From contig JBNRSN020000161.1 in NCBI GenBank assembly GCA_051313645.2, positions 682,001 to 746,000 on the forward strand: DNA of 64,000 nucleotides, in the 5' to 3' direction. A model generated the notes under the pieces. The model ran no database searches, had not been told where the DNA came from, and saw only the letters and a list, made by a program, of their open reading frames with translations. Both the position numbers and the translations under genes were made by a program. Below, in pieces: positions 9,383 through 36,640 of the stretch. This DNA is from Centroscyllium fabricii. Taxonomy: Eukaryota. Each line of letters begins with the position of its first letter. The first letter of the stretch is position 1.

Positions 9383-9419
9383 TCACAAGCTTTCGGAGCG
9401 CTGCTCCTTCATCAGGTGA
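9383..9419 (-). ncRNA. Minimal type I hammerhead ribozyme in a Penelope-like pseudo-LTR
   Basis: Minus strand TCAC-CTGATGA-A-GGAGC(AGC)GCTCC-GAAA-GCTT-GTGA: CUGANGA core, stem II, GAAA, palindromic helix III and stem I TCAC/GTGA. Confidence 0.8.
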
Positions 9420-9989
9420 AAGAGAAGTTGATCCAAAGACAGCACATATACAAGTGAGAGAGAAATCGAATCTCTCCCACATCTCACCTCAGCAGAGAGA
9501 CAAACAGAGCAGACAAAGGTGTTTTCACATATTTTAACATATTAATCAGGCATCAGTCTGAGATCAATGAGGCACAGTCACAAAGGGTCAAATGCTGCAG
9601 TCCTGTGTCTGTGCGAAAACACACAGAATGATTTTTTTTTTAAAGGATTTTCCTTACAAGGCAAAGACGACTCTAGTCTGGATGACTCTCCGTCAAGCAG
9701 GGTCACATGTAGCGCGACATGAAGCCAATATCACGGTTGAGGCCGTCCTCATGGGTGCGGAATTTTGGCGATCAGCCTCTGCTCGACGCTTTTGCGTTGT
9801 CGGGTGTCTCGAAGGCCGCCTTGGAGAATGCTTACCCGAAGATCGGAGGCTGAATGTCGTTGACTGCTGAAGTGTTCCCCGACTGGGAGGGAAGACTCCT
9901 GCCTGGCAATTGTTGTGCGGTGTCCGTTCATCCGTTGTCGTAGTGTTTGCATGGTCTCGCCGATGAACCATGTCTTTTCCTGCAACGAA

Positions 9990-10835: not shown

Positions 10836-11350
10836 ATGAGAGGGCTGTCCTATGATGAGAGATTGTGTAGAATGGGCCTATACTCTCAGGAGTTTAGAAG
10901 AATGAGAGGTGATCTCATTGAAACATGCAAGATTCTGAAGGGGATTGACAGGATAGAAGCTGAGAGGTTGTTCCCCCTGGCTGCAGTGTCTAGAACTAGG
11001 GTGCACAGTCTCAGGATAAGGGGTTTCGCCCTGGCTGCAGTGTATAGAACTGGGGGGCATAGTCTCAGGATAAGGGGTAGGCCATTTAAGACCGACATGA
11101 GGAGGAATTTCTTCACCCAGAGAGTGGTGAACCTATGGAATTCTCTGCCACAGAGGGTGGTGGAGGCCAGTTCATTAAATATATTCAAGAAGGAGTTAGA
11201 TATATTCCTTAAGGCTAAAGGGATCAAGGGATATGGGGAGAAGGCACAGACAGGTTACTGAATTTGGATGATCAGCCATGATCTCATTGAATGGCGGAGC
11301 AGGCTCGAGGGGCTGAATGGCCTACTCCTGCTCCTATCTTCTATGTTTCT
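10836..11350 (+). mobile_element. CR1 3' end with an internal ~58-bp duplication (duplicate at 14099-14615)
   Basis: GLSYDERLCRMGLYSQEFRRMRGDLIE...FFTQRVVNLWNSLP, then the CR1 hairpin and CTATGTTT tail. Confidence 0.85.
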
Positions 11351-14300: not shown

Positions 14301-15907
14301 CAGTGTATAGAACTGGGGGGCATAGTCTCAGGATAAGGGGTAGGCCATTTAAGACCGACATGAGGAGGAATTTCTTCACCCAGAGAGTGGTGAACCTATG
14401 GAATTCTCTGCCACAGAGGGTGGTGGAGGCCAGTTCATTAAATATATTCAAGAAGGAGTTAGATATATTCCTTAAGGCTAAAGGGATCAAGGGATATGGG
14501 GAGAAGGCACAGACAGGTTACTGAATTTGGATGATCAGCCATGATCTCATTGAATGGCGGAGCAGGCTCGAGGGGCTGAATGGCCTACTCCTGCTCCTAT
14601 CTTCTATGTTTCTGTGTTTCTATGAAAAGCAGCGTGCTGCAGGGCCCGCGCACGGTGAGCTGGCTTCTGAATAGAAAAAACGTGCACGTGCTGAATTTTG
14701 AATGGGCCGCACAACAAATTAGAGGGACCATTGCCTACAACTCTCCGATCATATAATAGAATGGTTGCAGCACAGAAGGAGGTCATTCGGCCCATCGAGC
14801 CCATTCCAACTCTCTGCCAGAGCACTTCAGCTAGTTCCACACCCCCGCCCTTTCCCCGTAGCCCTGCAAAATCTTTTCCAACAGGTATTTATCCAATTCT
14901 CTTCTGAAAGCCACAATTGAATCTGTCTCCAGGACCCTTTCGGGCAGTGATTTCCAGATGCTAACCACTCGCTGCGTAAAAACGTTTTTCCTCATGTCGC
15001 CTTTGATCTCTGTGCTCCTGCAATTCAGGCCTCTTGCGTATCCCATACTTTATTCGCTCCACCGCTGGCGGGCGTGCTTTCAGCTACCTCGGCCCTGAAC
15101 TCTGGAATTTCCTCCCGAAACCTTTCCGCCTCTGTCTCTCCTCCTTTAAGACGCTCGTTAAAACCTACCTTTTTGAACAAGCTTTTGGTCATCTGTCCTA
15201 ATATCTCCTTCTGCGGCTTGGTGTCAAATTTTGTTTGATAACACTGCTGTGGAGTGCCTTGGGACGTTTCACTATGTTAAAGAGGCTATATAATTACAAG
15301 ATGATGAGTAAATAAGGAGAAACTGTTTCCGGTGTCAGAAGGGTCAGAAACCAGGGGACACAGATTTAAGAAAATTTGCAAAAGAACCAGAGGCGACAGC
15401 AGGATGTTTCCCTGCCTCCCCCTACCGTACCTTGAGGTGACATAAGGTAAAAAAAAATGATGCAGCAAATTGTTGTGACTACTGGGAGTGCACTGCCTGA
15501 TAAGGTGGTGGAAGCAAATTGAATAGTAATGTGGAAAAGGTAATTTGGATAATATTTAAAGGTAAAATAATTGCAGGGCTTTGGTGAAAGAACAGAGGAG
15601 TGGGATTAATTGGATAGCCCTTTGAAAGAGCCGGCAGAGGCACGATGGGCCGAAAGGCCTGGTTCTGTGCTGTATCATTGTTCGGGAGTTAATAAGTTTG
15701 AACATTTGCCGAAGTGCAGAGTTGGCATGCAGCTTTGAAAAATTGGTTGTATGCAGTGTATAATTGTTGGTTTTTGGGCAAAATGTGTAATTTGTGAGTT
15801 GTAAGGCTGAAAATAACTGTGATGTGGAGGTGCCGGTGTTGGACTGGGGTGGACAAATGCAAGAAGTCACACAACACCAGGTTATAGTCCAACAGTTTTA
15901 TTTGAAA

Positions 15908-15944
15908 TCACAAGCTTTCGGAGCGCTGCTCCTTCGTCAGGTGA
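15908..15944 (-). ncRNA. Minimal hammerhead ribozyme (intact core)
   Basis: Minus strand TCAC-CTGACGA-AGGAGCAGCGCTCC-GAAAGCTT-GTGA. Confidence 0.8.
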
Positions 15945-16857
15945 AAGAGAAGTTGATCCAAAGACAGCACATATACAAGTGAGAGAGAAATCGAATCTCT
16001 CCCACATCTCACCTCAGCAGAGAGACAAACAGAGCAGACAAAGGTGTTTTCACATATTTTAACATATTAATCAGGCATCAGTCTGAGATCAATGAGGTAT
16101 AGTCACAAAGGGTCAAATTGCTGTAGTCCTGTGTCTGTGCGAAAACACACAGAATGATTAAAAAAAAGGATTTTCCTTACAAGGCAAAGACGACTCTAGT
16201 CTGGATGACTCTACGTCAGGCAGGGTCACATGTAGCGCGACATGAAGCCAATATCACGGTTGAGGCCGTCCTCATGGGTGCGGAATTTGGCTATCAGCCT
16301 CTGCTCGACGCTTTTGCGTTGTCGGGTGTCTCGAAGGCCGCCTTGGAGAATGCTTACCCGAAGATCGGAGGCTGAATGTCGTTGACTGCTGAAGTGTTCC
16401 CCGACTGGGAGGGAACACTCCTGCCTGGCAATTGTTGTGCGGTGTCGGTTCATCCGTTGTCGTAGTGTTTGCATGGTCTCGCCGATGAACCATGTCCTTT
16501 CCTGCAACGTATGAGGTAGACAACGTTGGTCGAGTCACATGAGTATGTACCATGTACCTGGTGTGTGGTGTCCTCACGTGTGATGACGTAGAGTCATCCA
16601 GACTGGAGTCGTCTTTGTCTTGTAAGGAAAATCCTTTTTTTTTAAAAATCATTCTGTGTGTTTTCGCACAGACACAGGACTGCAGCATTTGACCATTTGT
16701 GACTGTGCCTGTTTGATCTCAGACTGATGCCTGATTAATATGTTAAAATATGTGAAAACACCTTTGTCTGCTCTGTTTGTCTCTCTGCTGAGGTGAGATG
16801 TGGGAGAGATTCGATTTCTCTGTCCTTTGTATTTGTGCTGTCTTTGGATCAACTTCT

Positions 16858-17945: not shown

Positions 17946-20900
17946 TGTGACCGAAATAACGACCTCGTGGACGAGTAGTTAGGAAGAGAAACAATGCGGC
18001 TTTTATTAACTAAAGGTGGGACATACACCAGCTAGTCGACCGTCCCCCGGCATGGCCGGGCGATGGGGAGGCCACCACTTATATACCCCCTCCTGGGAGG
18101 GAGGAGATGTGGGCGGAGCCAACCTGGGCATATCCCAGTAATCGTGTCACAGGTTTATGTACAGGTACATGGTATTGGGTACGATTACATCTATACAGGT
18201 AGGGTAAGTATATACAACAATAACAATGAGAAACAGTGGTTTATCACATTCACCCCTTCTTTAAAACAAAAGTCCGGCGGGGTGAATGGAAAAGTTCTTT
18301 ATTTATAGGTTAAGTCGCTCCGGCGGTCTGGTGATCCTTGTCGAGCGTCGCACCGCTGGTGGTGTCCGCGGACGCGGAGTGGCCGGCCGAGTCGGTTGTA
18401 GCGATGGTGCTGCTGCTGGTTGGCAGGCGGTGGTCGTCGGTTGGTTTCTGGGTGGTGGTGGTGCCCTTATACTGACAGTAGGACGTGCGCTCTCTCCCTT
18501 GTCGTCTGACTCTAGGGGGCATGCGCTGTGGAGCCATGCTGGGGGCCATGCCGTGCTGCTCGCAGGTGCCGGGTGGGCATACTGGGGTACTGGGTCCACG
18601 TGCCGGGGAGCGTACCTTGGCGCCGGTGGCTGGGGTGGCGTGACTGGGCGTCTTGGGTGCGCTGGCTGCTGGGCGGGGCTTCTTGGGTGCGCGGGCTGCT
18701 GGGCGGGGCTTCTTGGGTGCGCAGGCTGCGGGGCGGGGCTGGGTTTGGGGACTCCTGCTGGTGCCAGGTCCTTGATGGACACTGTGTCCTCCCTCCCGTC
18801 GGGGTACGCCACGTAGGCGTACTGGGGATTGGCGTGCAGGAGATGGACCCGTTCGACCAGGGGATCTGCCTTGTGGCCCCTCACGTGCTTCCGTAGTAGG
18901 ACCGGTCCCGGGGATAGCAACCACGATGGTAGCGAGGTCCCGGAAGCCGACTTCCTGGGGAAGGCAAAATGTCGTTCGTGAGGGGTGGCATTAGTGGCAG
19001 TACACAGGAGGGACCGGATAGAGTGGAGCGCTTCAGGGAGGACGTCCTGCCATCGGGAGACTGGGAGGTTTTTAGACCTTAGGGCTAACAGGATGGCCTT
19101 CCAGACAGTGGCGTTCTCCCTCTCTACCTGTCCGTTCCCCCGGGGGTTGCAGCTGGTAGTCCTGCTAGTCGCGATGCCTTTGGCTAGCAGAAACTGACGC
19201 AGCTCGTCACTCATAAAGGACGCCCCCCGGTCACTATGAATGTAGTTGGGATAGCCGAACAGGGAGAAGATGCTATTGAGGGCTTTCATGATGGTGGCGG
19301 AGGTCATGTCCGGGCAGGGGATGGCAAAGGGGAAGCGGGAGTACTCATCGATAACATTAAGGAAGTACACATTCCTGTTGGAGGAGGGAAGGGGTCCTTT
19401 GAAATCGACGCTGAGTCGTTCAAAGGGGCGAGTGGCCTTAATCAAGTGCGCCCGGTCTGGCCGGTAGAAGTGCGGCTTGCACTCCGCGCAGACCTGGCAG
19501 TTGCTGGTCAGGGTCTTGACCTCTTCGATAGAGTAAGGGAGGTTGCGGGACTTCACAAAGTGAACCAACCTGGTGACCCCCGGGTGGCAGAGGTCATTGT
19601 GCAGGGTTTGGAGGCGGTCTGTCTGTGCGCCGGCACAGGTACCGCGGGATAGGGCGTCTGGGGGTTCGTTAAATTTCCCGGGCCGGTACAAGATATCATA
19701 ATTAAACGCGGAGAGTTCAATTCTCCACCTCAAGTTCAAGTTCAAGTTAAATTTTATTGTCACATATTTAAAACACAATTTAAACAGTGAAAAGCTTGCT
19801 GCTACCCGACACACCGTGCAACAACAACAACAACCGCGCAACAATTAAGCTGCCCGGCGCAACGAGCCCGCAAGATGTCAGCCATTCTCCGGCGCCATCC
19901 TCATGGATCCCGTTCCTGCTCTGGCCACTCAACCGTTGGTAAATTGTCCTCTCTCGCCCAGTCAATTCGCACTGCCACTGTTCCTTGCGTGGCCGCTCTC
20001 AGTCCGACTCCCCGAATCCACGGAGCTCCGAACTCCGGGCGCAGCGTCCTGAGGCCTGAAGCCTAGCCCTCTCCGAGTGCTCCATCCCAGCTCCCCTGAG
20101 CTCCGAACTCCAGCGCTCCCCTGAGCTCCGAACTCCAGCGCTCCCCGCAGCTCGACGCAGGCTCCCCGGAACGCCAAGCCAAGGCCGTCCCGATACCCCG
20201 GAGGTCCGAACCCCGGACCGAGGCCGAACTGATGCGGCGTCCTGGGGCTGAACCGTGCCCCGCATCTCACCGGCTCTCACCCGGCGCCGCCGACGTCAAA
20301 TGGCGGTCGACCAGAACGGATTGACTCTACGAAGAGGAGTCGAGGTACAGCCGCCCGATGGCGGCCGTCCTGCCAGAACCGGAACCGGAATTCTCTTGTC
20401 GTTCTTGATTTTACCCCGCTCCTTGTTGTTGAACATAAAAGCGACTGATCGTTGGTCAGTCAGCAGGGTAAAACGCTTGCTGGCCAGGTAGTGCTTCCAG
20501 TGACGCACTGCTTCAACGATGGCCTGGGCCTCCTTCTCGACTGAGGAGTGACGGGTCTCGGGGCCCTGGAGGGTACGCGAGAAGAAGGCCACGGGTCTGC
20601 CCGCCTGGTTAAGGGTGGCGGCCAGGGCAAAGTCCGATGCATCGCTCTCGACCTGAAAGGGGACGGACTCGTCCACAGCGTGCATCGTGGCTTTTGCAAT
20701 GTCGTTCTTAATGCTGCAGAACGCCGAGCTGGCTTCTGCGGACAGGGGAAAAGAGGTAGATTTGAGCAGTGGGCGAGCCTTGTCCGCGTAATTGGGGACC
20801 CACTGGGCGTAATACGCAAAGAACCCCAAGCACCGTTTAAGGGCCTTGGGGGAGTGGGGGAGGGGGAGCTCCATGAGGGGGCGCATGTGGTCCGGGTCGG

Positions 20901-22250
20901 GACCGATGACCCCATTCTCCACAACACTGCCAAGGATGGCCAGACGGGTAGTACTAAACACGCACTTTTCGGTGTTATAAGTTAAGTTAAGTGTTTTGGC
21001 GGTGTGGAGACATTTCTGGAGGTTGGCGTCATGGTCCTGCTGGTCGTGGCCGCAGATGGTCACGTTATCGAGGTACGGGAAAGTGGCTCGCAGCCCGTAC
21101 CGATCGACCATTCGGTCCATCTCCCTTTGGAAGACCGAGACCCCATTCGTGACGCCAAACGGGACCCTAAGGAAGTGATAGAGGCAACCGTCAGCCTCGA
21201 AGGCTGTATAGAGACGGTCCTCTGGGCGAATGGGAAGCTGGTGGTAAGCGGACTTGAGATCGATGGTGGAGAACACCCTGAACTGTGCGATCTGGTTCAC
21301 CATGTCCGATATCCGGGGAAGGGGGTAGGCATCTAACTGGGTGAACCGGTTTATGGTCTGACTGTAGTCAACGACCATCCGGTTCTTCTCTCCGGTTTTG
21401 ACCACCACTACCTGCGCCCTCCAGAGGCTATTACTGGCCTCGATGACCCCCTCTTTCAGGAGGCGCTGCACCTCGGACTTAATAAAGTCCATGTCCCCAG
21501 CACTGTAGCGCCTACTCTTGGTGGTGACGGGCTTGCAGTCTGGGGTGAGGTTGGCGAAGAGTGAGGGGGGGGCGACCTTAAGGGTCGAGAGGCCACAGGT
21601 AGCGTGCCGGGGGTGCTGCACTGAGCGCCGGTTTCTGACCGTGAGCGAGGGAAGGGGCCCACCGAACGCCATGGTAACACTCTGGAGGTGGCACTGGAAG
21701 TCCAGGCCCAAAAGAAATGGGGCGCAGAGCTGCGGCAGCACGAAAAAACTAAAATTATCAAAGAGCGCGCCCTGTACCGTTAGTGCAACTGTGCAACGCC
21801 CGGAGACGTCCGCGGATTCTGATTTAGAAGCCATCGAAATTCTTTGGCTCGCAGGTATAACCTTAAGGGAGAGGCGCTCTACTGTCTCGGGATGAATAAA
21901 ACTCACCGTGCTCCCACTGTCGAAAAGGCACACCACTTCTTGTCCATTTACTTCTACAGGCATCATCGAATTCCCGAGCGGTTCGGCCTTGTTCTGGCCG
22001 AGAGTCACCGATGCCAATATTGGGTCAGCCGATTCTTCTTGATCCAAAGAGTAGTCCTCCGGTGCTGATCCCCAAGATGGCTGCCGCCATGTGGTGTACT
22101 GCGGAGGGGGTGGCTGGGTCCAATATGGCGACTGCTGCCACGCGGGGAGCTGAGTGGGGGATGGTTGAGTCCAATATGGCTGCTCCCATGTTCCACACGC
22201 GGCGCTGCCCGGTTTCGGTTTCGTGGTTGATGTGGTCGCCTTACAGACTT
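17946..22250 (-). mobile_element. Gypsy element B: 3' LTR 17946-18248, PR-RT-RNaseH-IN, 5'-truncated in gag
   Basis: ORF 20296..22047 (LFDSGS protease, PYLDNV RT, ESDASD RNase H) and ORF 18303..19844 (HHCC, rve integrase). PPT GGGGTGAA. Interrupted by an insertion at ~19735-20392. Confidence 0.95.
19735..20392 (-). mobile_element. GC-rich non-autonomous non-LTR element inserted in Gypsy B RNase H
   Basis: Splits the KNDK|ILRWRIEL motif. The minus strand ends in GACAATAAAATTT(AACTTG)3, and there is an internal 29-bp tandem repeat at ~20089-20146. Confidence 0.7.
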
Positions 22251-22767
22251 TGGCATCAGTCTGAGATCAGTGAGGCACAGTCACAAAGGGTCAAATGCTG
22301 CAGTCCTGTGTCTGTGCGAAAACACACAGAATGATTTTTTTAAAAGGATTTTCCTTACAAGACAAACACGACTCTAGTCTGGATGACTCTACGTCAGGCA
22401 GGGTCACATGTAGCGTGACATGAAGCCAATATCACGGTTGAGGTCGTCCTCATGGGTGCGAAATTTGGCTATCAGCCTCTGCTCGACGCTTTTGCGTTGT
22501 CGGGTGTCTCGAAGGCCACCTTGGAGAATGCTTACCCGAAGATCGGAGGCTGAATGTCGTTGACTGCTGAAGTGTTCCCCGACTGGGAGGGAACACTCCT
22601 GCCTGGCAATTGTTGTGCGGTGTCCGTTCATCCGTTGTCGTAGTGTTTGCATGGTCTCGCCGATGAACCATGTCTTTTCCTGCAACGTATGAGGTAGACA
22701 ACGTTGGTCGAGTCACATGAGTATGTACCATGTACCTGGTGTGTGGTGTCCTCACGTGTCCTCACAG

Positions 22768-23168
22768 GGCGGCACGGTGGCACAGTGGATAGCACTGTTG
22801 TCTCACAGCACTGGAGACCCGGGTTCAAATCCAGCCTCGGGTACTATCTGTGTGGAGTTTGCACATTCTCCCCGTGTCTGCGTGGGTTTCCTCCGGGTGC
22901 TCCGGTTTCCTCCCACAGTCCAAAGATGTGCGGGATTAGGTTGATTGGCCATGATAAATTGACCCTTAGTGTTAGGGGGATTAAATAGGTGGGGTTACGG
23001 GGATAGGGTGGGATATGTGTTGATGGAGGCTCGATAGGGATATGGGGAGAGGGCAGGGGCGGGGTACTGGGTTTGGATGATCAGCCATGATCTCATTGAA
23101 TGGCGGAGCAGGCTCGAAGGCCCAAATGGCCTACTCCTGCTCCTAGTTTCTATGTTTCTATGTTTCTA
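22768..23168 (+). mobile_element. V-SINE (HE1-like); further copies at 32543-32963(+), 34510-34915(+), 31420-31700(-), 38470-38728(-), 40793-41026(-)
   Basis: tRNA-like A/B-box head, V-domain and (CTATGTTT)n tail. Confidence 0.88.
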
Positions 23169-23344
23169 TCATCCCCTCCCGGCACGCCAGCATTGGTGCC
23201 TCCATCCAACTAGGCCTCACACACTGGCATTCCCCTCTTAAAGCCCTCCCCTTCTGCACCTCTCACTCTTCCTTTTACGGTGCTCCTTAAAACCCACCTC
23301 TTGTACCAAGCTTTTGCTCACCCCCCCTAATATCTCAATGTTTG

Positions 23345-24242
23345 ATAAGAACATAACATAAGTAGGGGCAGGAGTAGGCCATACGGCCCCTCGGGCCTGC
23401 TCCGCCATTCAATAGGATCATGGCTGATCTGAACTTAGACTCACGTCCACTTCCCTGCCCTCTCCCCATAACCCCTTATTCCCCTATCAGTTCTCTGAAC
23501 TGCCTCGAGAGCAAGTATATCTTTTCTTAAATATGGAAATCAAAATTGTACGCAGTATTCCAGGTGTGGCCTCACCAGTACCCTGTATAACTGCAGCAAG
23601 ACTTCCCTGCTTTTATACTCCACCCCGTTGCAATAACAGCCAAGATTCCAATGGCCTTCCTGATTACCTGCTGTACCTGTATACTAACCTTCTGTGTTTC
23701 ATGCACTAGGACCCCCAGATCCCTTTGTACTGTAGCACTTTGCAGTTTCTCTCCATTTAGATAATAACTTGCTCTTTGATTTTTTTCTGCCAAAGTGCAT
23801 AACCTCACACTTTCCAACATTATATTCCATCTGCCAAATTTTTGCCCACTCACCTAGCCTGTCTATGTCATTTTGCAGGTTTTTTATGTCCTCCTCACTC
23901 ACTGCTTTCCCTCCCATCTTTGTATCGTCGGCAAACTTGGATACGTTGCACTCGGTCCATTCCTCCAAATTGTTAATATAGATTGTAAAGAGTTGGGGTC
24001 CCAGCACTGACCCCTGCGGAACACTACTAGTTACTGATTGCCAATCCGAGAATGAACCATTTATCCCAACTCTCTGTTTTCTGTTAGATAGCCAATCTTC
24101 CACCCATGCCAGTATATTGCCACCAATCCCATGATTTTTTATCTTGTGCAGTAATATTTTGTGTGGCACCTTGTCAAATGCCTTTTGGAAGTCCAAATAC
24201 ACCACATCCACTGGTTCCCCTTTATCCACCCTGTTTGTTGCT
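23345..24242 (-). mobile_element. CR1 LINE RT fragment with internal deletion and 3' tail
   Basis: ORF 23699..24253: VYLDFQKAFDKVPH...SVPQGSVLGPQLF...SKFADDTK. Confidence 0.9.
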
Positions 24243-25112
24243 TCAGTGTTCAATTTTTCCTTCTGCCTCTGAAGTGTTGCGGGATCTATTTTTCCACATT
24301 AAATGTATGTTGTTGGGTGGTGGTGGTCAACCATTGGCACAACCCCAACAAAATGTCATCAGGGATACCAGGGGCCTGTCTGCAAACATGCGTTTGGTCA
24401 AGGCTCACTCAAGCCAATTCTTTGGCATAAATTTGAACAATGTTATCTGATTCAGTGATTCTCAAACTTGTTGAGCCTGGAGGAAACACTCCTGCTCCTC
24501 CTGACCCACAAACAGTGCTGTAAATGTACTTTCCTCGTGGATTCAGCCCATCTCGCCTCCTTTTACCTGCCGGGATTCCTGAAGCCAGGGAAATCCGTCC
24601 AAAATGGGTTTAAAAAAAAAGAGAAATCTTGTTATAATGAAAGCACGCGGTCTCCTTAAAAGGTTTCAATGACCATTCCGCCTCCCGAGAGCGAATTGGT
24701 CACCCGCCCTTTGTCCCGCAGCCATTAAAACTGGAAGTAGGTGGGTTGGATTCCTGTTTCAGATTTTTAACATTTTTAACCTATCACTTGACCCTAGCCC
24801 ACCCGTTTTCGGAGGATTAAAATTAGCCTCTCTGTTTCTCTCACCCCTCCAGCTATGGATAGCGAGAGTGGTACAACCGCAAGAAAAGGTTTCTCTACTC
24901 CGTTACTCCTGTTCATTTTCTCTGCCTCTTTCGCTCTACCTCCTCCCCTACTCCTCCTTCTCGTTCACTGTTTACTCTCTCCTTTTTTTACTCCTGTGCG
25001 TCTCTCTACTCCACTCCCCTTTCCCTCCCCTCATTTTAATATTTCTCATCCAGTGCAGAGTGGGACTAATTGGAGAGCTCTTTCAAAGGGCCGGCAGAGT
25101 CACGGTGAGCTG

Positions 25113-25399
25113 AATAATAATAATACAACTTTATTGTCATTATACAATGTACAAGTACATGAACAATGAAATGTGATCTTGCAAGCTCCCTAGAGTCCAG
25201 CAAAGCCACTGCGTCTGTGCGCGCCGCCATTCCATCTTTCTGACCATCTTCAGCCAACCGCCCCTCCCCGAGGCTCCTTTCGTGACCTTCTGCACCTGGC
25301 ATTCCCTGGTATTCCCCCATCCAAGTACTAACCAGGCCTGGCCCTACTTAGCTTCCAAGCCTTGCCAGTGACCCTGACCCTAGTCCCAGGAACAGGGCT
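25113..25399 (-). mobile_element. 5S rRNA-derived SINE (SINE3-like), copy 1
   Basis: Reverse complement of 25807-26094; contains GGAAGCTAAG...GGCCTGGTTAGTACTTGGATGGG, the 5S internal control region. Confidence 0.75.
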
Positions 25400-25590
25400 C
25401 CTTCTGTGCTGTCAGATTCAATGATCCACTTTTATTTCTCCCCTCCCTCACTTTTGTCTCTTTCCCTCTCTCTCACGTGCCTCTTCCTTTTCGCTTTCCC
25501 TTTTTTTATTATGGTTTGTACCTCTTTCTCCCTCTGCGACAGTTTATTTTTCCTCCCTGTGGTGCAGCACTGGTGCTGCCACCTGAGGAA

Positions 25591-25605
25591 CCAGCAGGGG
25601 GCAGC
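25591..25605 (+). promoter_or_regulatory. CTCF core motif
   Basis: CCAGCAGGGGGCAGC is a near-consensus CTCF core in non-repeat sequence. Confidence 0.55.
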
Positions 25606-25806
25606 ATTGTCAAGGCGAGTGAGCAGAATGAGTCTCTCCAGCAGTCAGGGAATGGGACTTTACAGAGAGCCCGCTGCTGAAATAATAACTAACAAGCCCT
25701 GCTGGTGCTAAATATTGGTCAGGACTTTCTCAACCATCCTGTGTAACCACAGCATAGTAATATCTGGTCATTACAGCAACTTGCATTTATATAGTGCCTT
25801 TCATAT

Positions 25807-26094
25807 AGCCCTGTTCCTGGGACTAGGGACAGGGTCACTGGCAAGGCTTGGAAGCTAAGCAGAGCCAGGCCTGGTTAGTACTGGGAAGGGTCACCACCAG
25901 GGAATACCAGGTGCAGAGGTCACGAAAGGAGCCCCGGGGAGGGGCGGTTGGCTGAAGATTGTCAGAAAGATGGAATGGCGGCGCGCACAGACGCAGTGGC
26001 TTTGCTGGACTCTTGGGAGCTTGCAAGATCACATTTCGTTGTTCATGTACTTGTACATTGTATAATGACAATAAAGTTGAATTATTATTATTAT
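25807..26094 (+). mobile_element. 5S rRNA-derived SINE (SINE3-like), copy 2
   Basis: GGAAGCTAAGCAGAGCCAGGCCTGGTTAGTACTGGGAAGGGTCACCACCAGGGAATACCAGGTGC aligns with the 3' half of 5S rRNA (box A/IE/box C). The tail is GACAATAAAGTTGA(ATT)n. Confidence 0.78.
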
Positions 26095-27169
26095 GTAGTA
26101 AAATGTGATCAACCAAAGAATGAGATATTAGGGCAGGTGACCAAAAGCTTGTTCAAAGAGGTAGGTTTTAAGGAGCGTCTTAAAGGAGGAGAGAGAGGTT
26201 CAGGGAGGGAATTCCAGAGCCCAGGGCCCAGACAGCTGAAGGCACGACTGCCAATGGTGGAGCGAAGGAGGTGTGGGATGTGCAAGAGGTCAGACTTGGA
26301 GGAGTGCAGAGATCTCAGAAGGGTTGTAGAGCTGGAGGAGGTTGGAGAGATAGGGAGGGGGCGAGGGATTTGAAGATGAGAATTTTAAAGTCGAGCCTTT
26401 GCCGGACCGGGAGCCATTGTAGGTCAGCGAGCACAGGGCTGATGGGTGAACGGGACGTGGCATTCGCGCAGTTAAAATCTCACTGCAAATAATGAACAGC
26501 GGAACTCCTCCTTCATTGTTGAGGCTGAGAAGAGGGTCATTTGTTTGCCACCTGGCTGTGTAATAGCTGAGCTGGTATTCCTCACCTAGATGAACATTAA
26601 AAAAAATCCAAAAATAAATGTTAAAAATAGCAATGATTGCATCAGTAAATGCAATGCCTATTGTGGTACTGAGCCATACTGAGCAGGAAGGCCCTGGGTT
26701 GGGTTCTTGGTATGCTGACAATGAAGGGTCCAGACTATTGAACCAGGGGTGTCACCCAATGTTCCCGTTCATTATTGTTGGGGTGCATGACCCTTTTAAG
26801 GGGTTGCGTGGCCCATTCAAATTATCACGCAACCGCGATTTTTGCCACATAAAAGCCGGCGAGCGGCCTGCGCAGGACCACCAGTCTGCCATGCGGCCGC
26901 GCAGCTTAACGGGCACATTGGTGTCCTCACAGTTGTGCCTTCACATGACATTGACTAGACGCATTATGCAGTCAGGGTCACTAAACAGCAAAATGACTGC
27001 TTATCCTCCTCCTTGCCCCGGGTACAAGTGGATACTACTCATCTGGCTTTAGTGTTTCTGGGCCAGGGGGAGGAGAATTGCTCAACTGCCTAGTGACCCA
27101 GGCAGGAGAGTGTGTGGATATCAGTGCAGAGCTGGACTATGATGGCGTCTCTGATCAAATAGTGTGTTA

Positions 27170-27655
27170 ACTCGTACCAAGTCCCGTTCACCCATCACCC
27201 CTGTGCTCGCTGACCTACATTGGCTCCCAGTTAAGCAACGCCTCGATTTTAAAATTCTCATGCTTGTTTTCACATCCCTCCATGGCCCTCACTCCTCCCT
27301 ATCTCTGTAACCTTCTCCAGCCCTATAATTTCCCCAGACCTCTGCGCTCCGCCTATTCTGGCCTCTTGAACATTCCTGATTATAATCGCTCCACCATTGG
27401 CAGCTCTGCCTTCAGTTGCCGAGGCCCAAGGTTCTGGAATTCCCTCCCTAAATCTCTCCGCCTCGCTACCTCTCTTTCCTCCTTTTAAGACGCTCCTTAG
27501 AACCTACCTCATTGACCAAGCTTTCGGTTATCTGCCCTAATTTATCCTTATGTGGCTAAGTGTCAAATTTTGATTTTTTTGATAACACTCCTGTGAAGCA
27601 CCTTGGGACGTTTTATTACGTTAAAAGTGCTATTCAAATGCAAGTTGTTGTTGTT
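27170..27655 (+). mobile_element. L2 LINE 3' end (others on minus at ~26110-26460 and ~29735-30030)
   Basis: PITPVLADLHWLPVKQRLDFKIL...AFSCRGPRFWNSLP followed by the GCAAGTTGTTGTTG tail. Confidence 0.8.
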
Positions 27656-27889
27656 GGGGGCTACTTGGAGGAGTAAATGGAGGAAAGGAATTGGGGAGCA
27701 AATGACTGTGTCTGGATAAACTGGGACTTCTCGGTTTCAAACTGTGCACAGATCAGGCGTTTTCCTCCGACACGAATCTATATAATTTTGATGGTAATTT
27801 GCTGTGTTCTGTCCCCGTAATACTTTACCTGGATAATGTTTGTTACTGCTGACAAAGTGATGTGATGGGCAGCCTCTCCATTGTTTTAG

Positions 27890-27968
27890 GTGAAGTTGTG
27901 CAAAGCATTCTTTGCTCTCCAGGGACATATTCTGACACGGGAGCCCAGCCCTGCCGACTGTGGACAAA
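27890..27968 (+). CDS. TNF receptor superfamily gene (TNFRSF4/9/18-like), exon A: first half of the cysteine-rich domain
   Basis: ttttag|GT GAA...ACA AA|gtaagt; encodes EVVQSILCSPGTYSDTGAQPCRLWT(N). An in-frame ATG also lies at 27865. Confidence 0.88.
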
Positions 27969-28490
27969 GTAAGTGTTGCCGATTTGCTTAATATGTACAC
28001 TTGTCAATTTTGTTACTGCCATCAAAAAAACACTGGGTGACCCTGAAAATAAGTCTAGTCATGGTTTTAGACCACTTCCTGGGTTCTTCAGTAATGTCCC
28101 TTTTAATACAATTCACTAAAACTGGACTTCAGCCAGCTATTTCCTGCTTTGTGACGCATCTGTTTTCTTGTTAAATCACTAACACAAATTCTTTTGGCTA
28201 CTCAAAGTTACTACGAGCATTCTTTATTTCTGGGTTTCTCCAGAGGAATAATAGCCAGAGGAGCAAAGCACCTCCCTTGCCATATATCTTGCCTGCCTCC
28301 CTCAGGCACTATCCTAGATATCAGCAGTTTGTGTTAGGATTTGCGGAGACTTCTTCCCCTCCTCCCTCCGTCCATTTTTCCTCCCCACTGCCTCTCCCTT
28401 ACTGAGGCGATGCTCAGTGTATTTCCAGGGCCACTTGGGTGATGAGAGTTGACAGGGAGTGATTCTGTACTCCCATGATGCTGTAACTCA

Positions 28491-28603
28491 GAAACAACCC
28501 AGCCCACATTGAGAGTTCTTTCATTCAACCCAGCCCACATTGAGAGTTCCTTCATTCAACCCAATCCACATTGAGAGTTCCTTCATTCAACCCAGTCCAC
28601 ATT
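28491..28603. repeat. 30-bp minisatellite, ~4 units, intronic
   Basis: Unit CATTCAACCCAGCCCACATTGAGAGTTCCTT-like. Confidence 0.85.
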
Positions 28604-29043
28604 TGGGTCCTTCTTGGATGTCCCTGCTCAGTTACGGTCAAGGAGATTCATGGATGCAGTCTCAACATGCAGCTAAGCATCGGCAAGTGCCATCATGAAA
28701 AAATGTTTGTTGTGCTGTTTTAAGTGGTACTGCACTTCCAACATTGGCACACTTGGGTGCGCGTGACAACAAGCCAGCTCATTGGAGATGATTTTCTAAA
28801 TGAGGAGAGATGTGCAAAGGGTTCTTTCAAAGGGAATTGTGTAGCACAGCTAGGAGTCAGGGTGGGCTATGCTAATAGGTGGAGGAGAGGGAGAGGATTT
28901 GCACCTGTCCTTCTCCGAGGAGACTCAAGTTAGGAATTTGTAAGCTGGAGGGTTTTAAAGATGTAAACTTGAACAGTGCACTGGTGAATGCGTTTTCATT
29001 CCTTCTCAGTAATGCGCTCTTTATTCATCCTTTTTGTTAAAAG

Positions 29044-29138
29044 CTGCACCGCACTGGGTCATATCGAAATTACACCTGCAAATCAAACCAGTGACGCAAT
29101 CTGCAATGATATCACAAAGGAACCCTGCAGTCAGAGAG
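29044..29138 (+). CDS. TNFRSF gene exon B: second half of the cysteine-rich domain and stalk
   Basis: aaag|C TGC...AGA G|gtaagc; encodes (N)CTALGHIEITPANQTSDAICNDITKEPCSQR. The phase-2 join with exon A makes WTNC, resembling OX40 CKPWTNCTLAGKHTLQPASNSSDAIC. Confidence 0.9.
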
Positions 29139-30308
29139 GTAAGCTGTGTTTAAAAACACATTTACATCATTTGGCGAATTTACGCAGGTTAAAACATTCC
29201 CCATTTACACTGTGCCATCGGTCACTCCCAAATGTGCCCCACCCCAATCACCTCACCCCACCTTAATCAGCGCCCCCCCCACCCCCCGCCCCGGCCCCAG
29301 TCGGTGCTCCAAGTTGACCGTATTTGGTGTAATGACCGAGGGTGCGATGTGGGATTTATGCAGTTGTCTTCTCAGACTGTGGTTTAAGTAGGGTGCTTTT
29401 GTGAGGGGTATATTATAGAGGAGGGAGCCACAACCATGTGCGCTGTACTGTTATATTCGAAGGGTGATATATGAAAGAATGGAAGGGAGCTACTTGCTGT
29501 ATCAGACTTTCTTCAAGTGATGGGTGTGTACATTTCCTTGTTTCCTTGATCTGTAAACAAGGAACTTGCATTTATTGGACACTTTATCAGGACGGTCCAA
29601 AGCACCACATACAATGAATGACTTTGAAATGAGGTAATTGTTTTGAAGGCAAACAAGGCAATTATATTGCGTACAGCAAGATCCCGTGTGGCTCAATCAA
29701 GAAAGGAACGTACATGCTAATTTACAAATTAACAACTTGCATTTATATAGCGCTTTTAATGTAGTAAAGCGTTGCGCGGCGCTTCATACGAGCGACTATC
29801 AGACAAAAGGTGACACCGAGCCATAGAAGGTGACGTGAGGAGAGGTGACCAAGCACTTGGTCAAAGAGCTAGGCTGGAAGCCGAGTCTTCAAGGAGGTGA
29901 AGAGGTTTAGGGAGGGAATTCCAGAGCTTTGGGTGTAGGCAGCTGATGGCACAGCCAGTAATAGTGGGGCGAAGTAATTGGGGGATGCACAAGAGGTCAG
30001 AGTTGGAGGGACGCAGATTTCGCGGAGGGTCTATTAAACAGCTGAAAACATCAAATGGGAATAAATCCCTCTTGCTCAGTTAGTAAATGCACCACATCGA
30101 TGTAGCCCCGAGCAACATTTCCGTTTAGCTGCGCGTGCAGCCGGCCCTGAATACGCCTGGGATAGGAAAAGGAGGGAATATCGACCTGATCCCAGGAGAG
30201 TCAGCAGTTTCAGTAGGAGAAAGTAGAGAAAATTGGATTAAATCCCTTCAGTGGTACACATACTGCGCACATTTTCGAAGACATTTTGTGTTTTCTCTCT
30301 GACCAAAG

Positions 30309-30440
30309 GTTCAACTGACAAAGTGAAGGTTGTATTAGTCGTTATGGTCATTGGCAGTTTCCTCCTGCTGTGTCTATCGATTGGGATGCACATCGTCTTA
30401 TGGAGGAGGCAGAGAAGGAATGAATTTAAGTTGTTAACCG
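30309..30440 (+). CDS. TNFRSF gene exon C: transmembrane segment
   Basis: ccaaag|GT TCA...ACC G|gtacgt; encodes GSTDKVKVVLVVMVIGSFLLLCLSIGMHIVLWRRQRRNEFKLLT, a hydrophobic helix followed by a basic stop-transfer. Phases are 1/1. Confidence 0.9.
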
Positions 30441-33400
30441 GTACGTGAAGGTTTTTACAGTCACTTCCTCCCCTTTGGTTTCCTTACCAGTGGAGAAAAT
30501 GAATTGGAGCTCCCTCGGTGACAGTGGGGGAAACGATAGCCTGCTGCAACACAAAGGCACACACACAAAGGTTCCAAGGTGGCTGGGTTTTCAGCCTCTG
30601 CTCTGTTTAATTGATCTCACCCATGGGGGGAATTTTCCTGGAGCCGACAGCTGGCTTTTTCGGCAGCCGGGGAGGCAAAATCGCAGAAACGGGGGGTCGC
30701 GACCCCTCCCGCCGGTATCCCGCCAGCTTGTGCGTTTCAGCCCAGCGGGTCTGATCAACCCGCTTCAGTCCTGCCCACCACCGGCGGGGGTGGTCGTTAG
30801 GCTCATTAGGGACCCTTAATTGACATGCATAATGCCATTTTAAGGGCCCCTTGCAATTTTCAGCCTTTTCCCACACAAAACCGACCAGCTGGAAACCCTG
30901 CCATTGAAACCTAGTGGGGACACCAGTGACTTCCTGACTATCATTGAAGCAGCTGCAGTAGCAGCAGTCCCTGGATTCCAGTCTGCATCGGCACTAACTG
31001 TATCCCTAGGGTGCAAAAGATCAGTGGGAGAAAAGCTGTCACAAACTCACCTTGTAGCTGTTTTGAGAGATAACACCTAAGTTCTCAATGAAATGGCTCT
31101 GCTGGAGCAGGCAGCCAGTGAAACAGACAGCAGCTGTTACTCAATCTCTGTGGTTGAGAGCACCCATTGTGATGTCATAGACCTCTTTGATAATCCATTG
31201 AAACAGACAGCAGCTGTCACTCAATCTCTGGTTTAGTAGGCTAACGACCCTGTTGCTGAAACAGCCGAAACCCGCCGGCTTCCTGTCTGCAAACAGTCCT
31301 GAGGCAAGGGCTGCCCACCCGTGGGGATTTAATTGGCCAATTAAGCCAAAATTGCGTGGGGCTCCCACACCCCTCAGAAAGCGGGAAGAAAACATGATCA
31401 GTGGGGAACCCACCAATTCACAGAAACACAGAAGATAGGAGCAGGAGTAGGCCATTCGGCCCTTTGAGCCTGCTCTGCCATTTTTTGATGAGATCATGGC
31501 TGATCATCCAAACCCAGCACCCCCCTCCTACCCTCTCCCCATATCCCCCGACACCCCCAACTCTAAGAACTATCTCTCACACACATACTCATGGGCAATT
31601 TTTAGTATCTCCAATTCACCTAACCTGCATGTCTTTGGGTGATGGGAGGAAACCGGAGTACCCGGAGGAAACCCACACGAACACGGGGAGAACATGCAAA
31701 CTCCTTTTACTTTTTTTCCCCCTACACCTTGAGGAAAATTGACCCCATTGAGTTGAGTGTTGCAAATGTCCTTGGTGTTTCTGAGATGGAGAAATTTAAA
31801 AAACAAATGTGAGCTGCACTTTGTTCTGCGCGGACTGTTTCTTTTGATGTGCGGTTCCTTTAAATTTCTGCACCTGCGCGGTATTCACAGTGTAAAAGCC
31901 GGTGAGCGGCCCGCACAGGACTTTCAGATTACTGTGTGGCCATGTGCGCGCCTTAGCGGGAACATTGCTTCCTGATCACCATCCAGTGGCCTCTGCTGCA
32001 AGTGTGAATGTGTGGACATCAGGTAAGGGGAATCGGGCACCCACGGTTGAAGGCCCCATTGACACGTGGGCCTGGAGTTTAGCTCGGAGGCGCGATCCAT
32101 TGCGGGGAGCAAGGGGGGCTGTTTTGAAGTCAGTGGGTGGGGGGGGGGGGGGGTGGAAACCTGGAGGTACCAGCTAAAAACTGCAGGACGCCTTTTTAAA
32201 AACAAATGTTCTGCCCCACAGCCAGCCCGATTGACAGACTGAAGGCCTGTCAAGCGTGAAAGCCTGCAACACAAGGCGGCAGCTGAACTGGGTTGAGAGC
32301 AGGTAGGCCTAGTTGCGGGGAGATGATGGGTGGAGGTTTTCCGATCGCAGGGGGCAGATGGTCAGCAGTGGTGGGGGTCTGATGGTGATCAGGGAGCAGA
32401 CAAATCTGTGCAGGGGTGGGGAGGGGAGGTTTACTGGGTAGTTTGTTGAGCCTGGAGGAAGCACTCCTGCTCCTCCTGGCCCACAAGCAGTGTTGTAAAG
32501 GCACTTCCCTCATGGATTCAGCCCTTCAGCCCTTCAGCCCGGGGCGGCACGGTGGCATAGTGGTTAGCACTGTTGCCTCACAGCTTTGGAGACCCGGGTT
32601 CAAATCCAGCCTCGGGTACTATCTGTGTGGAGTTTGCACATTCTCCCCGTGTCTGCGTGGGTTTCCTCCGGGTGCTCCGGTTTCCTCCCACAGTCCAAAG
32701 ATGTGCGGGTTAGGTTGATTGGCCACGATAAATTGACCCTTAGTGTTAGGGGGATTGAATATGTGGGGCTACAGGGATAGGGTGGGATATGTGTCGATGC
32801 AGGCTCGATAGGGATCGCGGGATATGGGGAGAGGGCAGGGGCGGGGTGCTGGGTTTAGATGATCAGCCATGATCTCATTGAATGGCGGAGCAGGCTCGAA
32901 GGGCCGAATGGCCTACTCCTGCTCCTATCTTCTATGTTTCTATGTTTCTATGTTTCTATGTTTCTCTCCTCCTGGCCAACGTGAGTTTAAAAATAGAATC
33001 ACTCTTAAAATGTCCAACCCACCTCCTGCGAGCAGATTGGTCGCCCAACCCCTCACCTCACCTCCATTAAAACCGTAAGTGGGCGGGTTGGGTTCCTGTT
33101 ACAGATTTTTTAAATTTTAACTTCTGACCTGACCCCAACCCACCCTTTTTTGGGAGTTAAGGTTCAATCCATGATGTCTATGCTCACACCTAAAGGATGG
33201 CCACCTGGGCAAGGTACTGGATAACTTAACCCATTCTCCAGCAACAGTCAGTGCCTTCAGGAGAGGAGAGAATTGTGGTTCCTTTTTATTTAAAAAAAAT
33301 TATTCAATAAAATGACCTCTATATACGATAAGTGGGACCAGCCTATATACATTTGCAATTTTGCTCAAAGTAACAGACAAGAGGAAGTCTCCACAAACCT

Positions 33401-33495
33401 GGTCACAAGGTTAGTATAGACAGAGAATGAAAGTGTTCATGCAGTTTGGACAACCATATTTACCCATGCACTTTTATCCTTTTGCTTTGTGACAG

Positions 33496-33638
33496 CTGAG
33501 ACGAGTCCACGGCTCCTGAGGGCACAGGCGGAAGACACCTGCAGCACGCACTTCCCAGAACAGGAGTGCGGAGGGATATCGCACCAAGAGAAAAAGAACA
33601 TCGAGCAAGCCCATGTTGCTGTAAATTGTGGTTGCTGA
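33496..33638 (+). CDS. TNFRSF gene exon D: cytoplasmic tail with TRAF-binding motif and stop
   Basis: gacag|CT GAG...TGC TGA; encodes AETSPRLLRAQAEDTCSTHFPEQECGGISHQEKKNIEQAHVAVNCGC*. EDTCSTHFPEQECGG resembles 4-1BB EDGCSCRFPEEEEGG and GITR EDARSCQFPEEERG. Confidence 0.88.
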
Positions 33639-36600
33639 TCTCTTTTTGCATGAGGAAGACGTAATTGGACAGACAGTGGGGTTTATTCGGGTGTAAATGC
33701 GACACAGTGGGCCAGAAATTGCTGCAGTGACAGGTTTGGTGGCAAACTGACGTTAGTTGGACTTTTCCTGGTCGATATTTATCCCTCAACCAACATCACT
33801 AAAACAGATTATCTGGTCATTATTACATTGCTGTTTGTGGGAGCTTGCTGTGCGCAAATAGGCTGCGGCGTTTCCTGCATTACCACAGTGACTACACTTC
33901 AAAAAGTACTTCATTGGATGCAAAGCGCTTTGGGACGTCCTGAGTTCGTGAAAGGCATTCTAGAAATGCAGGTCTTTATTTTACGTTCATCGTTGACATA
34001 TACTTGCGCCGCAGATTGCTGGAACACCAGTTCCAAAACGGCTCAGCGATGTCCATGTCGCATCTGGAGCCTCGTGAACGTCGTGCCCATTGGCCTATCT
34101 CCCTTGACCAATGAAAGGAAAGGATAGAGAAAGAAACAGAGTGAAAGACGGAGGAGGATCTAGGGCAAATTTGAATCCAATGAAAGTGGGATAAGAGAGA
34201 GAGGGGAGGAGGGGAAGGGACAGGATGGAATGGTAGGAAAAAATGTAAAAAGAGCAAACAGCAGAAGAGAACATTGTAAGCTAGCTGCGTTTGGGACTTG
34301 GTCCTTGAGGAGTTAATGAGCGAATGGCAGGGTAGGTGTGCGAAATGTACAAACGTTCCTGACCCATGACGTATAGAACCAGGGGTCCTGTCCGTCATAA
34401 TCAGGAACAGTGGAACACCCAGTAGGCATGCCATGGCACTGCTATCATAGCAACATCGGAATTGCTAGACAAAAGCACGCCATCTAGTTCGCCTTCTGCC
34501 ATCCTGGTAGGCACATGGTGGCACAGTGGCACAGTGGTTAGCACTGTTGCCTCACAGCACTGGAGACCCGGGTTCAAATCCGGCCTCAGGTACTATCTGT
34601 GTGGAGTTTGCACATTCTCCCCGTGTCTGCGTGGGTTTCCTCCGGGTGCTCCGGTTTCCTCCCACAGTCCAAAGATGTGCGGGTTAGGTTGATTGGCCAT
34701 GATAAATTGACCCTTAGTGTTAGGGCGATTGAATATGTGGGGTTACGGGGCTAGGGTGGGATATGTGTCGGTGCAGGCTCGATAGGGATCGAGGGATATG
34801 GGGAGAGGGCAGGGACGGGATACTGGGTTTGGATGATCAGCCATGATCTCATTGAATGGCGGAGCAGGCTCGAAGGGCCGAATGGCCTACTCCTGCTCCT
34901 AGTTTCTATGTTTCGATGATACAGTGATCATATTTTTTAATTCATTCATGGGATGTGGGCGCCGCTGGCAAGGCCGGCATTTATTGCCCATCCCTAGCGG
35001 CCCTCGAGGTGGTGGTGAGCCGCCGCCTTGAAACAACTGAGTGTCTCACTGGGCCATTTCAGAGGGCAGTTAAGAGTCAACCACATTGCTGTGGGTCTGG
35101 AGTCACATGTAGGCCAGGCCGGGTAAGGAAGGCAGATTTCCTTCCCTAAAGAACATTAGTGAACCAGATGGGGTTTTATGATAATCTGGTTGTTTAATGT
35201 TTACCATTAATGGTACCTTGAAAAAAAAAATCCAGATATATTTAATTAACTGAATTTAAATTCCCCAGCTGCCGTGCTGGGATTTGAACTCCTGACACGT
35301 TAGCCCAGGCTTCTGGCTTACCCGTAACATAACCGCTATGCTACCATCCCAGTTAAAATGAGTCATTGACTCATCATAGCAATCAATCGCTAATAATTAG
35401 TCTGCAACAGACCCATGAGGTGCTGAAAGCCCTTCCCCCACCACCCCTGTGAACCATAGGTCCAAGGTCACCTTTCTCCTTCCAGGCATGCTACACTCAC
35501 CACATAGCATGACTCAAATTATTCATATACTGTGTCCTAAAATATTAGTATCTAATTTGTATTTGAATGATGGACACTCTCCTGAGTGTCGAAACAGCTT
35601 TGCATCCTGAAAATCGACACGAACAGGAGGGTGGATGGCAAAAGTGACACAAAAATTATGCCAAGACTGATAAAAACCCTAGGAACAATTCACTACCTGC
35701 TGGAGTGAGACTCCGCAGCGTCATTGTTCCCCTTCTAGGCCTCCAAGGTAGAGTGTCATGTCAGGACCACAAATCCTGTCACGAACCGGATTCTCTGCGA
35801 CAGTCATTACCAGCTGCAGCGGGAATCATTTGCACTAATGTGAATCTAGAAATTTCACAATTGGCGGTAATTTCTTTGGGGAGCCTCACCGCAAGATGTG
35901 ACTTTTATCGGCCTTGGCACGGCTCACAGCAGTGAGGCGCAAATCGTCCTGAGAATTGGAAATCACAGCGTACCACTTTTATTCCGCAAATTGCTGGACT
36001 TTTTACGAATTGCTTATGGCGAGCGCTGTTTATGCGACATTCTAATGCTGTGACTTCCCAGCAATTTCTAGTCCAATACCTCTTATCCCAACGGGTGTAG
36101 TTGGGGAAGGGGGGTGGGGGTTGGCCGGGTGGGGGGCGTGGAGGAGGATGGGGGGGTGTTGTACAATTTTCCTCCAAAATCCTTTGGAGGGGGGTAAAAC
36201 CAGGGAGGGTTCCCACTACTGGTTGCTTTCTTGGGATTCCCTGCTGGAAAGTGGTGATTGTGTGGACCACAGCAGACCAGATGCTAATATTGATTATCCA
36301 GGGTCATACGTGAAGAAGAGCCACCTATGCAACTACCAATGTGGTAAAAGTGGAATTTAATTTCCTTTTATTTTAATTTATTCTCGCGATGCACGTGTCA
36401 CTGGCAAGGCCAGCATTTATTGCCCATCCCTAAGGTGGTGGTGATCCACCTTCTTGAACCGCTGCAGTCCGTGTAGTGAAGGTGCTCCCACAGTGCTGTT
36501 AGGGAGGGAGTTCCAGGATTTTGACCCAGCGACGATGAAGGAACGGCCGATATTCTTCCAAGTCAGGATGGTGTGCGACTTGGAGGGGAACTTGGAGGTG

Positions 36601-36640
36601 GTGGTGTTCCCATGCGCCTGCTGCCCTTGTCCTTCTAGGT

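Follow-up and report, generated by a model that had tools for sequence, protein, structure and literature searches.

The 64,000-nucleotide stretch of Centroscyllium fabricii DNA analysed here (the window; G000:C669:682001-746000 in a 7.2-Gb assembly) contains four exons of a tumour necrosis factor receptor superfamily (TNFRSF) gene; they very probably form a young, 5'-truncated segmental duplicate, comprising exons 4-7 of a seven-exon gene, and with it a non-functional pseudogene fragment. Coordinates below refer to the window unless a contig is named. The four exons have AG/GT (GT-AG) ends and junction phases 2,1,1, and the spliced frame stays open to a TGA stop; this model, proposed in a preliminary description of the DNA, agrees with protein matches and with the junctions in spliced contigs. 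Each of exons 4-7 aligns, in order, to the Heptranchias protein P0001 (60-68% identity, E 2e-11 to 1e-6), and the same boundaries recur as junctions in contigs of related species, which places the exon structure beyond chance.

The window copy covers only the last 149 residues of the receptor (Table 1). It contains a single membrane-proximal cysteine-rich domain (CRD) with four cysteines, which resembles TNFRSF chains and the orthologues; judged by sequence, a single transmembrane (TM) segment and a TRAF-type tail with no death domain follow, and TRAF binding is a predicted trait. The Pfam model PF00020 gives no TNFR match with the single exons and matches P0001 at E 4e-12. All of the protein motifs quoted in the preliminary description lie in their exons (CSPGT at 27913, PCRLW at 27949, SDAIC at 29090, EDTCS at 33531 and FPEQE at 33552), and the exon 7 tail carries EDTCSTHFPEQECGG at 33531-33575. 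Window exon 7 has a private T-to-A change at 33528; the window-type alleles are G at 33528, and A at 27947 together with G at 27962.

The first window exon is an internal exon, and the in-frame ATG at 27865..27867 (+) is not a derived start. This ATG, earlier offered as the start of the protein, sits in intron 3, 25 nt before the exon 4 acceptor; it is identical in seven of seven copies, the complete gene included, and the 130 nt preceding exon 4, which contain it, are nearly identical across the seven. A second possible phase-1 acceptor for exon 4 is present at 27923, and was dropped as the main acceptor given the gap-free orthologue alignment from 27890 and a contig starting exon 4 there; a 5-nt frameshift hidden in exon 4 was dropped on the same alignment.

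A complete parent gene and seven partial copies

The assembly holds one complete gene and seven partial copies. The complete gene, c1, lies at C767:21613002-21632429 and has 837 coding nt (278 aa) with phases 1,1,1,2,1,1; its exons measure 154, 126, 108, 79, 95, 132 and 143 nt, exons 1-3 totalling 388 nt, and encode in order a signal peptide, CRD1-2, a short CRD3, CRD4, the TM segment and the tail. Upstream of exon 1, no more than 140 nt from the c1 ATG, stand motifs that we take to be TATA, AP-1, CRE-like and kB-like elements. The presence of this parent bears out the proposal that the window copy is a 5'-truncated paralogue. Exon 4 has seven genome matches at 98-100% identity, of which the 1.7-Mb contig C669 carries three and the 87.7-Mb contig C767 four; whole-genome DNA searches return exon 1 once, exon 2 five times and exon 3 five times, all on C767, and exon 7 six times. 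Among the partial copies on C767, c2, c3 and c5 consist of exons 2-7 and c4 of exons 2-3; on C669 the window copy and copy E consist of exons 4-7, and copy D of exons 4-6, exon 7 being lost. A PF00020 scan, in which 150 of 346 candidates were scored, detects another CRD exon 10-17 kb upstream of the copies on C767 and no such exon close to the window.

The truncation point is shared by all three C669 copies. Similarity to C767 starts at 23168, within parent intron 3, with the same junction in copies D and E, and a patchy likeness to the C767 array extends beyond the duplicated block to ~44175. The element directly left of the junction is presumably a SINE, judged from its copy pattern, and the long open reading frames (ORFs) found where parent exons 2-3 would lie are assumed from their motifs to be of the Gypsy family. 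More 5' parent sequence matches C669 in dispersed repeats only; the earlier statement that ~6-24 kb is almost all repeats holds, 89% of that interval matching repeats from unrelated regions. The three C669 copies are embedded in larger blocks that are 97-99.8% identical, and they share 46 intron changes with no counterpart on C767; intron divergence is 2.4% between window and parent and 0.7% between window and copy E, and these two C669 copies group with 100% bootstrap (copy D left out).

Table 1. Features of the window and their coordinates
Feature	Position	Strand	Description
Exon 4 of 7	27890..27968, 79 nt	+	linker; membrane-proximal CRD, first half; acceptor of phase 1, donor of phase 2
Exon 5	29044..29138, 95 nt	+	membrane-proximal CRD, second half; short stalk
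Exon 6	30309..30440, 132 nt	+	hydrophobic TM segment ~30329-30403, then basic stop-transfer
Exon 7	33496..33638, 143 nt	+	cytoplasmic tail, GITR-like; stop 33636-33638
Duplicated block	23168..36640	+	copy of the C767 gene, running from within intron 3 (its 3' part) into the 3' flank; 95-97% identity, long alignments
SINE-type repeat (presumed)	22767..23163	+	directly left of the truncation point
Gypsy-like LTR retroelement ORFs (presumed)	18306..22266	-	long ORFs, where parent exons 2-3 would lie

A possible path is that a repeat-bounded block without exons 1-3 was copied once from C767 to C669, and that the C669 block then multiplied inside larger segmental duplications, roughly 99% identical. 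The window copy would be neither transcribed as a receptor nor able to bind ligand, because the promoter, the signal peptide and CRD1-3 are absent; the parent would act as an ordinary activation-induced, ligand-clustered, TRAF-recruiting co-stimulatory receptor, as its family and its upstream motifs suggest. Unprocessed (duplicated) pseudogene fragments offer the closest likeness: introns are kept, a parent is present, the 5' end is missing and several young copies show different losses; the window copy differs from them in that its frame is still intact. The truncated duplicate matters mainly for annotation, where partial copies would inflate gene counts and confuse read mapping.

It is very unlikely that C669 arose as an assembly artefact or by mis-joining of an alternative haplotype, which would leave some or all of the three truncated copies without a locus of their own. 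The contig does consist of 1.7 Mb of 99% identical long repeats, the DNA runs X4-X7 contain only 0.59-0.65 of the window's words, and long contigs of run X5 carry C767-type alleles, sharing 28 of 32 listed variants with c3 and 5 of 32 with copy E (11 further variants lie outside the list). However, contigs drop variants, and X5 may come from another individual or species; the 46 common intron changes and the breakpoint are absent from C767, and these features, like the fully supported grouping of the window copy with copy E, would not arise through assembly error. The X5 alleles hint weakly that individuals or species differ in their C669 copies.

The window copy is without the signal-peptide exon (exon 1, single-copy on C767) and without the ligand-binding CRD1-3 region (exons 2-3). 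Exons 2-3 have no match in the 194 kb of N-free sequence that surround the window on C669, or in the 100 kb that surround each sister copy; when orthologues are compared with the three C669 regions by tblastn, only exons 4-7 are returned, apart from weak matches, namely one on the wrong strand with a stop (E 0.31) and repeats aligned with the N-terminal extension of P0002 (E 0.009-0.12). Within the window there is no other CRD or leader exon, as had been reported. A leader-exon scan of 127.9 kb gives two identical matches ~96-100 kb upstream of exon 4, none nearer and none on the reverse strand; it was run without a Kozak filter, and its positive control recovered exon 1 and one false match in 27 kb. 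No credible replacement leader exon is apparent in these sequences, which argues against the short missed leader suggested before. It is scarcely probable that the copy belongs to an ordinary, complete receptor with exons 1-3 further upstream on C669 or missing from the assembly: shark introns are long and repeat-filled and the genome search counts are lower bounds, but the whole-genome searches place exons 1-3 on C767 only, the 128 kb upstream are N-free and hold no match, and exon 3 is only 6-12 kb from exon 4 in the C767 copies.

Several further features were seen around these loci. Three near-identical repeat units, ~3.26 kb apart, occupy window positions 8008-9987, 11275-13250 and 14538-16509. 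In C767:21613002-21790000 one promoter and leader exon precede two intact exon 2-7 cassettes and a remnant with exons 2-3; at C767:22014769-22034860, 0.24 Mb further along, a copy with exons 2-7 lies in inverted orientation. In principle, exon 1 could be spliced onto the later C767 cassettes. Copy c5 has an AT-rich insertion of ~740 nt (C767:22014709-22013970, -), 60 nt after its stop and with a microsatellite tail, which is likely a LINE end. Poly(A) hexamers are uninformative, the parent's nearest AATAAA being a variant within a repeat and those of c5 stemming from the insertion. A tail-like short stretch at C767:22251378-22251440 was discarded as it has no accompanying exons within 22.24-22.40 Mb, and a tandem array with a period of ~11.3 kb at C767 ~21.87-22.00 Mb produces regularly spaced identical weak matches.

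Orthologues, selection and possible use of the copies

The orthologues of the parent are long receptors. In alignment A1 a signal-peptide region and CRD1-3 are present in nine of nine orthologues, and no one-CRD form is seen; together with the complete parent, this speaks against the minimal one-CRD receptor that the preliminary description had considered. Over 266 aa, the parent and P0001 share 62% identity. Elasmobranch proteins named TNFRSF9-like, 5-like, 14-like or CD27-like by NCBI (XP_067826175.1, XP_067873088.1, XP_051894979.1, XP_060708020.1 and others) are orthologues of the parent at 38-62% identity, with the same cysteine pattern including the short CRD3 and, in most, the same TM segment and tail; they carry the signal-peptide region and CRD1-3, whereas the window copy has the last 149 residues only. 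Their automatic names conflict with one another and with gene order. No homologue emerged from word-based searches with exons 7 and 2; an HMMER search with exon 2 produced 18 matches at E up to 0.001, and the ten looked up comprise seven shark or ray TNFRSF9-, 5-, 14- or 1B-like proteins, one stickleback CD40 and two unnamed proteins. Among the models P0014, P0026 and P0018, the first cysteine of the last CRD is absent from those of rays, as expected from an acceptor equivalent to window 27923, and further cysteines are lost; the Cetorhinus model skips exons 4-6. These oddities are either isoforms or annotation errors.

Contigs of four of seven sequencing runs, none of them recorded as RNA, were compared with window 27700-30520 (exons 4-6). 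A 655-nt contig of run X1 has exon 4 from 27890 at record positions 462-540 and exon 5 from 541, with the introns skipped and 461 other letters upstream of exon 4, compared with the 388 coding nt of parent exons 1-3; a 644-nt contig of run X3 joins exons 4-5-6 and extends past them by 139 letters at the 5' end and by 210 at the 3' end. These contigs show the ordinary spliced form of the orthologue, and the additional upstream sequence that the preliminary description had named as the mark of an ordinary receptor is thus present for the orthologue in related species, by length only. Runs X1-X3 have no cover over 27700-27889, which was not counted as evidence.

Variation among six copies was compared after exclusion of a misaligned 3' flank (80 of 124 columns) that had exaggerated the difference (P 0.005). 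With repeats or CpG removed, the difference between exon and intron variation has P = 0.10-0.16. Most of the exon deficit seen in the C669 lineage lies on the stem branch, which may predate the truncation; after the split of window and copy E, one exon change is seen where 1.4-2.4 are expected. Private coding changes in the partial copies are eight non-synonymous and four synonymous (exons 4-7 contain ~345 N sites and ~99 S sites) and hit a conserved Trp in c5 and a conserved Cys in c3; those of the parent are one or two non-synonymous and three synonymous. Both later C669 coding changes are non-synonymous. The counts in the copies appear compatible with neutrality.

Several points weigh against reading the window copy as a non-functional duplicate of this parent. 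It has zero stops, frameshifts or damaged splice sites; exons have fewer variable columns (12/449) than introns (270/5997), a difference with P 0.07 that is not significant after correction; and in the C669 lineage one exon change is seen, against the 3.9-5.9 to be expected from intron rates (Poisson P 0.02-0.10, uncorrected and from small numbers). The X1 and X3 contigs stem from two other related species, sampled in two studies, and mismatch exon 4 at 4-5 positions; that they derive from RNA is a guess, and their upstream part agrees in length only. The genome match counts are lower bounds, and a tree of 11 rows with no tetrapod references has long branches and one starred node and is uninformative for the GITR name given to the parent.

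It is improbable that the copy is expressed from a repeat-derived or cryptic intron promoter as a 157-aa leaderless one-CRD membrane protein starting at ATG 27865, which would insert through its TM segment and modulate signalling through the intact tail. Such a protein would account for the unbroken frame and splice sites of two C669 copies and for the mild deficit of exon changes; the ATG is preceded by a purine at -3 and followed by G at +4, there are LTR-type and SINE elements upstream, and the membrane-proximal CRD mediates dimerisation in mammalian GITR, as described in part of PMC7925557. However, seven of seven copies show the ATG with its 130-nt context as unaltered intron sequence, none of nine orthologues has such a form, one sister copy is without exon 7, the later C669 changes are both amino acid replacements, and the Phe pair of the mammalian dimer aligns to Leu and His. 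The copies are also young (2.4% intron divergence from the parent, 0.7% among C669 copies), so that an intact frame is expected without selection. BCMA and BAFF-R represent leaderless mini-receptors, a type recognised by its own start site and a conserved short form; the window ATG is parent intron and the orthologues are all long. The broader proposal that truncated copies are used, either as a C669 leaderless one-CRD GITR-like protein whose TM segment and TRAF-type tail would tune co-stimulation or uncouple it from ligand, or through splicing of C767 exon 1 to the tandem exon 2-7 cassettes to yield several variants from one promoter, is unlikely, if marginally less so. A truncated pseudogene fragment is the preferred reading of the window copy.

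Identity of the parent receptor

The assignment to the TNFRSF4/9/18 group made in the preliminary description is supported, and within this group the parent is likely the GITR (TNFRSF18) orthologue, with a gene on C591 likely OX40 and a gene at 33.5 Mb on C767 likely 4-1BB, based on gene order and on an alignment to GITR over the proximal CRD, TM segment and tail. The human order C1orf159-TTLL10-TNFRSF18-TNFRSF4-SDF4-B3GALT6 is given in part of PMC13488206; on C767, C1orf159 lies at 20.41 Mb, TTL-family exons at 21.07-21.37 Mb and the parent at 21.61 Mb. The parent thus occupies the left side of the GITR position; adjacency on the right side would involve an OX40-like gene and SDF4, which are on the unplaced C591. 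The orientation of the parent relative to TTLL10 presumably differs from the human one. No further TNFRSF gene is found in C767 21.39-22.40 Mb. The same TTL-family exon occurs three times (C767:21073840, 21232287 and 21338341), therefore the adjoining TTLL10-like gene is also partly duplicated.

P0001 aligns with the mouse full-length GITR chain 7e57_C over the proximal CRD, TM segment and tail (E 8.5e-15); GITR is also the only PDB match of exon 7, a weak one (E 2.8), and an A2-type cysteine cluster precedes the last CRD as in GITR. The parent TM segment and tail are closest to GITR among PDB chains, a comparison biased by how few of these are full-length. Mammalian GITR, according to part of PMC7925557, contacts its ligand through the B1 module of CRD2 and dimerises through two Phe in CRD3; the shark parent differs in its canonical CRD1-2 and seven coding exons, and it lacks both the GITRL-binding B1 module and the two dimer Phe, which correspond to the Leu and His mentioned above. 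With the module and the Phe pair absent, the parent is classed as a GITR-position receptor and not as a demonstrated binder of the mammalian GITR type. Whole-protein PDB ranks were rejected as a gene identifier since OPG, RANK and HVEM-type chains come top, and OPG beats GITR on the ectodomain.

The ectodomain had been called OX40-like and the tail 4-1BB/GITR-like; the former rests on a weak match, OX40 being the best PDB hit of exon 5 (E 0.3). The tail, like gene order, points to GITR. OX40 presumably has a seven-exon layout and phases like those of the parent. OX40 lies directly downstream of SDF4 and has a PxQEE tail and an S/T/P stalk, and these features are borne by the C591 gene, not by the parent: at C591:38443-73259 (-), L179-L183, there is a complete receptor of seven exons whose stalk is S/T-rich and whose tail carries PVQEE. 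It shows 25% identity to the parent and lies downstream of an exon that reaches 97% identity to SDF4/Cab45. A PF01762 ORF, which we take to be B3GALT6, is ~180 kb away; PF01762 and PF01416 matches on C767 (68.8 and 39.2 Mb) are not near the locus and were set aside. The third CRD of the C591 receptor keeps two modules. Its exon 3 was rejected as an OX40 indicator by PDB, since it matched 4-1BB rather than OX40.

For 4-1BB, the parent gives the best PDB matches with exon 3 (E 0.009) and exon 4 (E 0.27) and has a similar tail motif. TNFRSF9 (4-1BB) is linked to PARK7 and ERRFI1, and this position is held not by the parent but by a separate receptor at C767:33512736-33529316 (+), L172-L173, which has the 4-1BB layout and tail and whose first exon was not located; it lies 0.24 Mb from a DJ-1/PARK7 match, consisting of one exon below the Pfam cut-off, and near a Mig-6 match. 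It is 39% identical to the parent over the three exons compared.

Judged by gene order, three separate co-stimulatory receptors appear to exist in sharks, one each at the GITR, OX40 and 4-1BB positions. As the parent has no GITRL-binding module, and as PMC7674686, in the part concerned, reports OX40L and 4-1BBL in sharks and no GITRL in fishes, the GITR-position receptor raises the question of the ancestral GITR ligand, for which OX40L is a likely candidate. The database names of the orthologues (9-like, 5-like, 14-like, CD27-like) hide both the three-receptor arrangement and the ligand question. A literature search, with most subscription journals beyond its reach, found no paper on shark TNFRSF18; the relevant parts of PMC6001812 and PMC9318831 add nothing specific.

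Two exons of another TNFRSF gene, presumably Fas/DR/HVEM-like, are found at C669:393.5 kb and 384.8 kb (-), L193-L194, the second of which seems to be without one conserved cysteine; C669 may therefore collect TNFRSF fragments.

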